Assembly: GCA_951406725.2 (NCBI GenBank)
Contig: OX597831.1
Coordinates: 29,822,001-29,886,000, forward strand
Direction of reading: 5' to 3'
Origin: Octopus vulgaris
Taxonomy: Eukaryota
DNA: 64,000 nt
Part shown: positions 12,452-23,647 of the stretch, one piece after another
Layout of the letters: every line of letters begins with the position of its first letter
How positions within the stretch are numbered: position 1 is the first letter of the stretch
Translations under genes and position numbers: made by a program
The notes under the pieces: generated by a model
What the model was told of the DNA's origin: nothing
Seen by the model: the letters and a program-made list of their open reading frames with translations, nothing else
Database searches by the model: none

Positions 12452-12668
12452 GCAAACACACACGCACACACACACACACACAAATACGTGGCCCATATCT
12501 TGAATCACCAGGTTGCAGTATTTCTGTTCTTCCTCGTATATTCTACAATATGTAAGGCACATGCCATTCCTTCCCCCACCCCCCACTCTCCCACCACCTG
12601 CAACTTAATCCTCACCCACCCTGTCCCTCCACATCTCAACCACACCGTCCTGTCTCTCCCCACTCTCC

Positions 12669-18530: not shown

Positions 18531-19046
18531 ATACCATTAGTCTAAATACGGATAAACCATTGGTCTAAAACTACCATACCACTGGTCTATAATTATTATA
18601 CCAGTCTAAACACAGGCATATCATTGGTCGAAACACTTCCATAGCATTGGTCTAAACTTCGCATACCATTAGTCTAAACAAGGGTATACCATTGGTCTAT
18701 ACCTTACCATAAGTCTAAATACAGACATACCATTACTCTAAACATGGGCATACCATTTGTCAAAACTTTGTCGTAGCATTGGCCTAAACCTACCATACCA
18801 TTAGTCTGAACATACCATTGGTCTAAACTTCGCATATTATCAGTCTAAGCAAGGCTATACCATTTGTCTAAATCTACTATACCATAAGTCTAGATACAGT
18901 CATACCACTACACTAAACGCGAGCATACCATTAGTCTAAACACTTCCATAGCAGTGGTCCGAATTTCCCATACCATAAGTCTAAAAATTGTCATACCATT
19001 AGCCTAAGCACGGGCATACCATAGGTCTAAACTCTGTCATGCCATT
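18530..19046. repeat. Degenerate minisatellite, ~21-23-bp unit (CATACCATTRGTCTAAAC core)
   Basis: ATACCATT.GTCTAAA recurs more than 20 times in tandem. Confidence 0.9.
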
Positions 19047-19723
19047 TCTTATTTCTTTACTGCCCACAAGGGGCTACACACAGAGAGGACAAACAAGGAC
19101 AGACAAACGGATTAAGTCGATTATATCGACCCTACTGCATAACTGGTACTTAATTTATCGACCCCGAAAGGATGAAAGGCAAAGTCGACCTCGGCGGAAT
19201 TTGAACTCAGAACGTAATGGCAGACGAAATACCTATTTCTTTACTACCCACAAGGGGCTAAACACAGAGAGGGGACAAACAAGGACAGACAAACGGATTA
19301 AGTCGATTGCATGGACCCCAGTGCGTAACTGGTACTTAATTTAATCGACCCCGAAAGGATGAAAGGCAAAGTCGACCTCGGCGGAATTTGAACTCAGAAC
19401 GTAGCGGCAGACGAAATCCCTATTTCTTTACTACCCACAAGGGGCTAAACACAGAGAGGGGACAAACAAGGACAGACAAACGGATTAAGTCGATTATATC
19501 GACCCCAGTGCGTAACTGGTAGTTAATTTATCGACCTCGAAAGGATGAAAGGCAAAGTCGATTATATCGACCCCAGTGCGTAACTGGTAGTTAATTTATC
19601 GACCTCGAAAGGATGAAAGGCAAAGTCGACCTCGGCATGATTTGAACTCAGGACGTAACGGCAGACGAAATACGGCTACGCATTTCGCCCGGCGCGCTAA
19701 CGTTTCTGCTAGCTCGCCGCCTT
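19047..19723 (-). mobile_element. SINE family A multimer: one head plus three ~187-bp bodies, with a ~68-bp internal duplication
   Basis: Junctions GACGAAAT(A/C)CC|TATTTCTTTACTACCCAC at about 19233 and 19420. Head AAGGCGGCGAGCTAGCAGAAACG starts at 19723. Confidence 0.9.
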
Positions 19724-19726
19724 TTG

Positions 19727-19832
19727 AAATATGGAACACTTCACGAATTTTCGTGTCGTCCTTGCGCAGGGGCCATGCTTAATCTTCTCTGTATCGTTCC
19801 AATTTTAGAATATGTACCGCCGTAGCTAGTAC
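19727..19832 (-). pseudogene. U6: Full-length U6 snRNA retrocopy
   Basis: Minus strand reads GTACTAGCTACGGCGGTACATATTCTAAAATTGGAACGATACAGAGAAGATTAAGCATGGCCCCTGCGCAAGGACGACACGAAAATTCGTGAAGTGTTCCATATTT. ACAGAGA box, AGC triad and ISL are recognisable. It has several substitutions, a 1-nt insertion, only T3 at the end and no upstream TATA. Confidence 0.95.
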
Positions 19833-20141
19833 ATGCCATTCCTGATGACGTCCTTCTTATTCTGTCTTTGTGTTGAATGTAAAATTTTTATTTCTAACAA
19901 TTACTGGCGACTTCAGTGGAAATATTATACAGCAGCAGCAGCAATAACAACATCAGCTGCCACAGTAACAACAGCAACAGCAACAACGAAGGTCACAGTA
20001 ACAGTAGAAGCTACAACAACAACGATAACAACAAGGTTATTAAATAGAATATCAGTCCGACAAAATATTTTTTGTAAAGCTTCCTTGACAACTTTGGTAG
20101 ACAGATGCAGTAAGGTCGGTGTGTGCTGTGTGCTGTGTGCT

Positions 20142-23575: not shown

Positions 23576-23647
23576 AAATTAGTTGTATAATGGTAAGTAT
23601 ATCTGCCTGTCAAGCAGGAGACCGGGGTTCGATTCCCGCCGGTATAG
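23576..23647 (+). pseudogene. tRNA-Asp(GTC) pseudogene
   Basis: GTATAATGGTAAGTAT..TCTGC CT GTC AA GCAGG AGAC CGGGGTTCGATTCCCG follows the eukaryotic tRNA-Asp consensus, with the anticodon at 23609-23611. The acceptor stem does not pair. Confidence 0.85.

Follow-up and report, generated by a model that had tools for sequence, protein, structure and literature searches.

A U6 snRNA-SINE chimera inside one target-site duplication in Octopus vulgaris, and the recurrence of its layout across the genome

A fused U6-SINE copy lies on the minus strand (19038-19840) of a 64,000-nucleotide stretch of Octopus vulgaris DNA (GCA_951406725.2, contig OX597831.1, positions 29,822,001 to 29,886,000), which is referred to here as the window and supplies the coordinates used below. 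The features of the copy and of the adjoining repeat, in the 5' to 3' direction of the fused copy, are the following:

19832..19840, minus strand: 5' copy of the target-site duplication, whose last base is U6 +1 (1-nt microhomology) and which carries a private minisatellite variant
19727..19832, minus strand: full-length U6 retrocopy of gene type 1, with no upstream TATA and three terminal T's (Rfam and alignment with an array gene)
19722..19726, minus strand: junction, three bases from neither partner and then the two-A SINE leader (comparison with plain copies)
19674..19721, minus strand: SINE-A head (alignment)
19420..19673, minus strand: SINE-A body unit 1, with a 68-bp internal tandem duplication
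19233..19419, minus strand: SINE-A body unit 2
19047..19232, minus strand: SINE-A body unit 3, the final ~50 nt of which match an L1/Tx1-like LINE 3' terminus
19038..19046, minus strand: 3' copy of the target-site duplication, equal to the first minisatellite unit
18531..19046, no strand assigned: minisatellite with a 23-bp period, its edge being the putative insertion target

The U6 part was identified with Rfam (RF00026, 19832-19725, minus strand, 97.5 bits, E 5e-24, model positions 1-105) and aligns to a gene of the tandem U6 array with 102 matches, three substitutions and one gap (an insertion). The tandem genes carry a TATA-like element near -30 that is missing upstream of the copy, which has the form of a chimera without external promoter and with a 3' T-run; this run comprises three T's, shorter than the five to six that are commonest among junctions. 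SINE-A follows directly 3' of U6, in sense and with its own 3' end present: after the three T's come five bases (C and four A's) and then the head of the SINE at 19721. The last two A's of this linker correspond to the usual SINE leader, A being found at -2 in 34/40 and at -1 in 28/40 plain SINE-A copies, and the remaining three bases fit neither partner. The Rfam hit and the alignment of both parts bear out the initial annotation in describing a full-length U6 joined to the exact 5' start of a SINE; its "trimeric SINE-A" holds for the body units, three of which stand in tandem, but not for the element as a whole, since there is a single 48-nt head and not three entire SINEs. The head carries what we take to be a Pol III A-box-like motif and had no match in Rfam. 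Divergence from the references is 2.9% for U6 and 3.1% (17/552) for the SINE parts. SINE-A multimers, at 19047-19721 and at many other loci, restart at either of two internal head positions, and the bases at these positions are the last bases of the element, as if the reverse transcriptase (RT) re-primed by short homology. A tRNA-Asp-like copy elsewhere in the window (23576-23646, 35.4 bits, weak acceptor stem) is probably a pseudogene.

The 9-bp string CATGCCATT at 19038-19046 and 19832-19840 brackets U6 and SINE together, the right copy overlapping U6 +1, so the flanking repeat reported by the initial annotation is where it was said to be; a third copy in the window, at 12560, is unrelated. 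The left 9-mer overlaps A's normally borne by the SINE end and is an in-register unit of the 23-bp minisatellite, the first of the array. Its C variant is found in 0/22 other listed units and is common to the right copy, which indicates that the match is a duplication of the array edge and not a chance resemblance; the objection that the left 9-mer is merely a minisatellite variant matching by chance is therefore correct as to the unit and incorrect as to chance. A single 9-bp duplication with a private variant thus surrounds both parts. Comparable duplications were sought around 22 U6-SINE-A chimeras, many of them supplied by the junction pattern, and at least 9 bp were duplicated in seven of the 17 with a locatable 3' end (the window copy is one of the seven), as against 0.25 on average and at most 2 over 1000 shuffled pairings. 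Nine of the 17 showed no duplication of at least 7 bp. Plain SINE-A copies have 9-25-bp duplications in 14/30 cases, and duplications are mostly missing in chimeras with the CR1-type 3' module described below. Carriage of U6 and SINE in one retrotransposition event, as first proposed for this copy, is supported by the duplication with its private variant, the similar divergence of the two parts (~3% each) and the same layout at many loci.

Over its final ~50 nt, SINE-A agrees with the exact 3' terminus of a young LINE at 39/47 aligned bases, with a score of 45 as compared with a mean of 16 and a maximum of 29 in 500 shuffles; R4/Dong, RTE and CR1 were rejected as partners of SINE-A, the remaining LINE ends scoring at the shuffle level (13-16). 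Such a 3' tail shared with a LINE terminus is that of a LINE-mobilised SINE. The motif ends 29/30 copies of the LINE, mostly before TATC-type repeats, and its intact ORF2 of 1152 aa contains endonuclease, RT and zf-RVT domains and is closer to human L1 ORF2p (E 3e-57) than to R2 (1e-21) in the PDB, where few LINE clades are represented. Many open 1152-aa ORF2 frames of this L1/Tx1-like family were observed in TATC-type microsatellites (L366-L395, L417). The Tx1 label rests on this microsatellite targeting, which is known for Tx1 families according to the accessible part of PMC4494074. The "non-L1 machinery" first invoked is therefore not supported for this copy, its SINE tail matching a LINE whose ORF2 is nearest to human L1 ORF2p. 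Because only 39 of the 47 tail bases match, the true partner of SINE-A is probably a sister family of this LINE, one that our search did not find: looking for a LINE closer to the tail gave 21 matches, the matched strings of which look like truncated SINEs.

The searched genome is a 2.8-Gb assembly in about 30 large contigs. The genome-wide count of the U6/SINE junction that the initial annotation proposed gave 15 places where an exact U6 end is followed by the SINE-A head (control 0), so the copy is not the one-off that was then considered. Exact U6 3' ends number 259 by pattern, and in 134 of these pattern matches a shared head tetramer lies no more than 14 nt past the end, where ~4 (1.6%) are expected; the 134 include six double counts among the 100 rows listed. 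A junction sample was formed from the first 100 listed of the 259 ends (C1-C7). By script, 75 of these matched a reference sequence, from a retroelement or an RNA, at the junction, nine were TATA-flagged (eight genes and one false flag), seven are palindromic and nine were unmatched, seven of the latter being given a partner by eye. Altogether 82/100 sampled ends are fused to a SINE, a LINE or another small RNA, six of the 82 representing one event in a segmental duplication, and three are without an assigned partner. U6 with a plain poly(A) tail was found at 0/100 sampled ends and at none by genome-wide pattern.

Partners of U6 include the heads of SINE-A, SINE-C and SINE-D/E, a short 3' module found at the end of CR1-like LINEs and of SINE-C/D, and RTE-like and CR1-like fragments, with R4/Dong-like and Penelope-like fragments at further loci; chimeras with partners of these four LINE types thus occur elsewhere in the genome. 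These four labels are provisional and based on motifs, and one CR1-like frame that was checked has an RT domain with weak likeness to L1. All partners scored as heads are in sense. The last partner at L203 was rejected as RTE and is CR1-like instead. Eight sites (including L222, L223, L230, L236, L254 and L255) were rejected as U6 genes, the upstream layout of the gene being missing and seven of them being palindromic. Head-to-head palindromes of U6 copies that include the 3' flank (L222, L223, L230, L236, L255) were observed, suggesting fold-back copying, and L222, L223 and L254 have one downstream repeat in common. The genome contains two U6 gene types with different 5' stems, one forming a seven-copy tandem array (C1:139.42 Mb) and the other a single gene on C2 (L208), and both have given rise to chimeras. 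One U6 chimera has been multiplied six times in a ~20-kb tandem segmental duplication (L056-L061, C1:132.4-132.5 Mb). Longer chains were also seen: at L285 (C24:14.70 Mb) U6 is followed by the SINE-A head alone and then by an R4/Dong-like LINE fragment that terminates with a TAA repeat, and at L196 a tRNA-like copy with a terminal CCA, judged Lys-like by eye, is joined to a 5'-truncated U6 and then to the 5' part of a second U6.

The survey of small RNAs covered U6, U6atac, 5S, 7SL, U1 and U2. U6atac gave 43 matches, and inspection of the top 20 by eye found 17 chimeric, one gene-like and two without an assigned partner. There are 142 exact 5S ends, 98 of the 100 listed sitting in one array; 11 ends are followed by the head tetramer (by pattern), and 9/9 dispersed 5S copies that were fetched are fused, several with the 3' trailer of the gene, which points to the ends of precursors. 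For 7SL, 10/11 dispersed copies are fused. U1 and U2 were assessed by pattern counts, as family searches returned mostly genes: the only match among 45 U1 ends is a gene flank, with no U1 fusion found, and U2 is fused at three loci representing two events (a pattern count that has no denominator). Non-gene U6 ends (~250, extrapolated from the eight genes in 100) together with U6atac far outnumber fusions of 5S and 7SL, 5S being a more abundant RNA than U6 or U6atac. At L286 (C25:5.35 Mb) two 5S precursors stand in tandem before a Penelope-like RT/endonuclease fragment.

U6-SINE chimeras are already known in platypus and anole, so the novelty of the present copy is below what the initial annotation implied. 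In the available sections of PMC4476161, U6 chimeras with L2, RTE and SINE partners are reported (platypus partners Mon-1 and L2; anole partners AnolisSINE2, L1, L2 and RTEX), the U6-SINE chimeras being made by non-L1 LINEs, and U6-poly(A) copies are said to be lacking where stringent LINEs act. The octopus resembles both animals, as far as they are described there, in having U6 in sense upstream of a stringent LINE or SINE, several LINE clades per genome, no U6-poly(A), a preference for U6 and U6atac, and short or absent duplications for L2/CR1-type partners. It differs in being an invertebrate, in having hundreds of copies in place of tens, and in the additional fusion of 5S precursors and 7SL. 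Octopus joins fall at intact SINE starts and at one fixed 3'-module point, while the completeness of vertebrate SINE parts is unstated in those sections. The human U6/L1 chimeras (PMC6789731, in part) likewise comprise a full-length U6, a short T-run, a 3' retroelement and one duplication, but there the L1 must offer a 5'-OH and is 5'-truncated to varying extents without a favoured position, whereas most octopus SINE partners begin at the 5' end and extra bases are common. Crocodilian SINEU, as covered by the accessible portion of PMC4494074, similarly has an snRNA-derived 5' part and inferred mobilisation by a Tx1-clade LINE; it forms amplified families with U1/U2 heads and a shared structure, whereas the octopus copies look independent and carry U6. 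Tripartite Magnaporthe chimeras (PMC2104539, from the text available) likewise consist of several RNAs in an end-to-end chain made by a non-LTR RT; the organisms, RNAs and LINE clades differ. Human L1 chimeras with 7SL, 5S and tRNA are listed in the consulted part of PMC11838501, and what was available of PMC7245038 and PMC4824008 has no bearing on the junction. A literature search that lay outside most subscription papers and Repbase found no cephalopod or mollusc report of U6-SINE chimeras, and in the main text of the O. vulgaris repeat paper (PMC13282606), to the extent available, there are no hits for "snRNA" or "chimer".

The reading we favour, with moderate confidence, is that the copy arose in one target-primed reverse transcription, during which an L1/Tx1-type enzyme copied the SINE RNA through to the 5' end and then, probably by a jump, took up U6 from its oligo(U) 3' end. 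From what was directly observed (the anatomy, the duplication, the genome-wide recurrence of the layout and the match between SINE tail and LINE) we infer the following course. A nick at the minisatellite edge would have permitted priming on the SINE 3' end via a short A microhomology; the enzyme would then have run off at the SINE transcription start, added a few non-templated bases to the cDNA and jumped end-to-end onto U6, and the second strand would have been primed via the shared G. Bibillo and Eickbush reportedly described such end-to-end template jumping for R2 in 2004, with a different organism, RNAs and LINE clade. Jumping is favoured by joins at intact SINE starts, by U6-U6 and 5S-5S chains and by extra junction bases. 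U6 joins fall at SINE starts at 37/100 sampled ends (34 placed by script, three by eye) and inside SINE bodies, away from the fixed 3'-module point, at 4/100. Joins at that module point, where plain copies of the module are truncated as well, also favour jumping, as do the 5S copies that keep the trailer of the gene. Joins onto +1 ends comprise U6-U6 (L196, L203), U6-5S (L233) and 5S-5S (L113/114). The +1 ends of U6 and 5S are capped or triphosphorylated. RtcB requires a 5'-OH, and gave 0/26 full-length products with a 5'-triphosphate partner in the accessible part of PMC6789731. SINE-A pieces also occur upstream of U6 or 5S with microhomology (L019, L034, L221, L260), at L019 and L034 within one duplication together with the U6 or 5S. 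Extra bases were present in 59/80 junctions (five duplicated loci dropped) and in 17/22 junctions for which the native upstream sequence of the partner is known; bases beyond the leader also occur in 7/14 plain SINE-A copies with a duplication, so that extra junction bases are not diagnostic. The frequent first C of the linker may, judging from its sequence, have been copied from the gene's own trailer.

A tentative alternative, which we consider possible and yet rather unlikely, is that RtcB ligated the 2',3'-cyclic phosphate of U6 to a SINE RNA that trimming within the leader had left with a 5'-OH, and that the fusion RNA was then retrotransposed whole. Ligation has been demonstrated biochemically for human U6/L1 (PMC6789731, available part); U6 and U6atac dominate over 5S, the bias that cyclic-phosphate ligation predicts, while U1 is absent and U2 rare; T-runs of 3-7 are found in 74/80 junctions; and promiscuous joining to five retroelement partner types is simply explained by an RT-independent step, which counts against jumping. 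The fixed breakpoint of the short 3' module, used at 30 sites (25 events), could likewise be an RNA cleavage site. Plain copies of the module are truncated at this same point in 18/60 cases by eye, the cut falling within a few bases of one position whatever lies upstream in the parent; this point may mark where the RT stops or where the RNA is cleaved. The module was rejected as the stop-codon boundary of a LINE, the stop lying ~20 nt upstream, and no hammerhead or HDV ribozyme core motif was seen in the module by eye. This ~50-nt module of CR1-like LINEs has two variants, with 1123 and 1003 exact copies (L166-L195, L136-L165), and often stands alone. Against ligation, SINEs are joined mostly at the 5' start of plain copies, whereas the breaks in human U6/L1 are internal and scattered, and joins to U6 +1 or 5S +1, SINE pieces 5' of U6 and chimeras of 5S precursors and 7SL are all unexpected. 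A partner 5'-truncated at scattered sites and set directly on the T-run would point to RtcB, but the partner in the window starts at its own 5' end behind three extra bases. The junction data lean against a fusion RNA preceding reverse transcription, and jumping and ligation may both operate.

Insertion in two steps, with a U6 retrocopy first and a SINE later entering its T-rich 3' end, appears improbable: the nine of 17 SINE-A chimeras lacking a unit-wide duplication of at least 7 bp would suit it, as would L009, where a long TAT repeat lies between U6 and the SINE behind it, but the linker is not duplicated at the SINE 3' end, unit-wide duplications are far above chance, the expected U6-poly(A) precursors are missing from both the sample and the genome-wide pattern, and the partners listed as heads are all in sense. 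Membership of an amplified U6-headed SINE family, also raised initially, is more doubtful still. The 15 exact U6/SINE-A junctions speak for it, as do small, undescribed "U" and "U-L1" SINE classes in the automated O. vulgaris annotation (PMC13282606, Table 1, in the part available), which are unexplained there; against it stand differing linkers, the use of two U6 gene types, SINE-A parts with 0-4 complete body units, and the lack of any sister copy nearer than the U6 genes (96%) in the best 41 of 656 candidates. A SINEU-like set of numerous copies that all share a junction and a structure was not found. The chimeras look like independent one-time products with no sign of a U6-headed family. 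Lacking both a U6 promoter and any observed sister copy, the window copy was likely dead on arrival, and its locus is probably an inert pseudogene. Least credible of all, to the point of being nearly negligible, is a chance minisatellite match or an assembly artefact at the junction, for which the in-register left 9-mer could be cited; the variant private to the two copies (0/22 other units) and the same layout on many contigs speak against it.

The debate over whether U6 chimeras come from template switching by RT or from an earlier ligation of RNAs has so far drawn on few vertebrate genomes. The octopus extends the phenomenon to an invertebrate. Its junctions are independent, number in the hundreds and have known partners, several of them lying at ends that RtcB should refuse, so that jumping and ligation become testable by census together with RNA-end chemistry; the genome is valuable as a large-scale natural comparison of the two. 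It also presents candidate proto-SINEs, in which 5S or 7SL heads are set on LINE tails. More broadly, and with about an even prospect of proving right, RTs from as many as five non-LTR lineages would here, as a matter of routine, reach the end of one template and jump from there to the end of a Pol III RNA with an oligo(U) terminus (U6, U6atac, pre-5S, 7SL), this being nearly the sole retroposition route for these RNAs; the hundreds of fossils would then indicate that U6 chimeras need no RtcB ligation, and that fusions of an RNA head with a LINE tail keep arising as a source of new SINE families.
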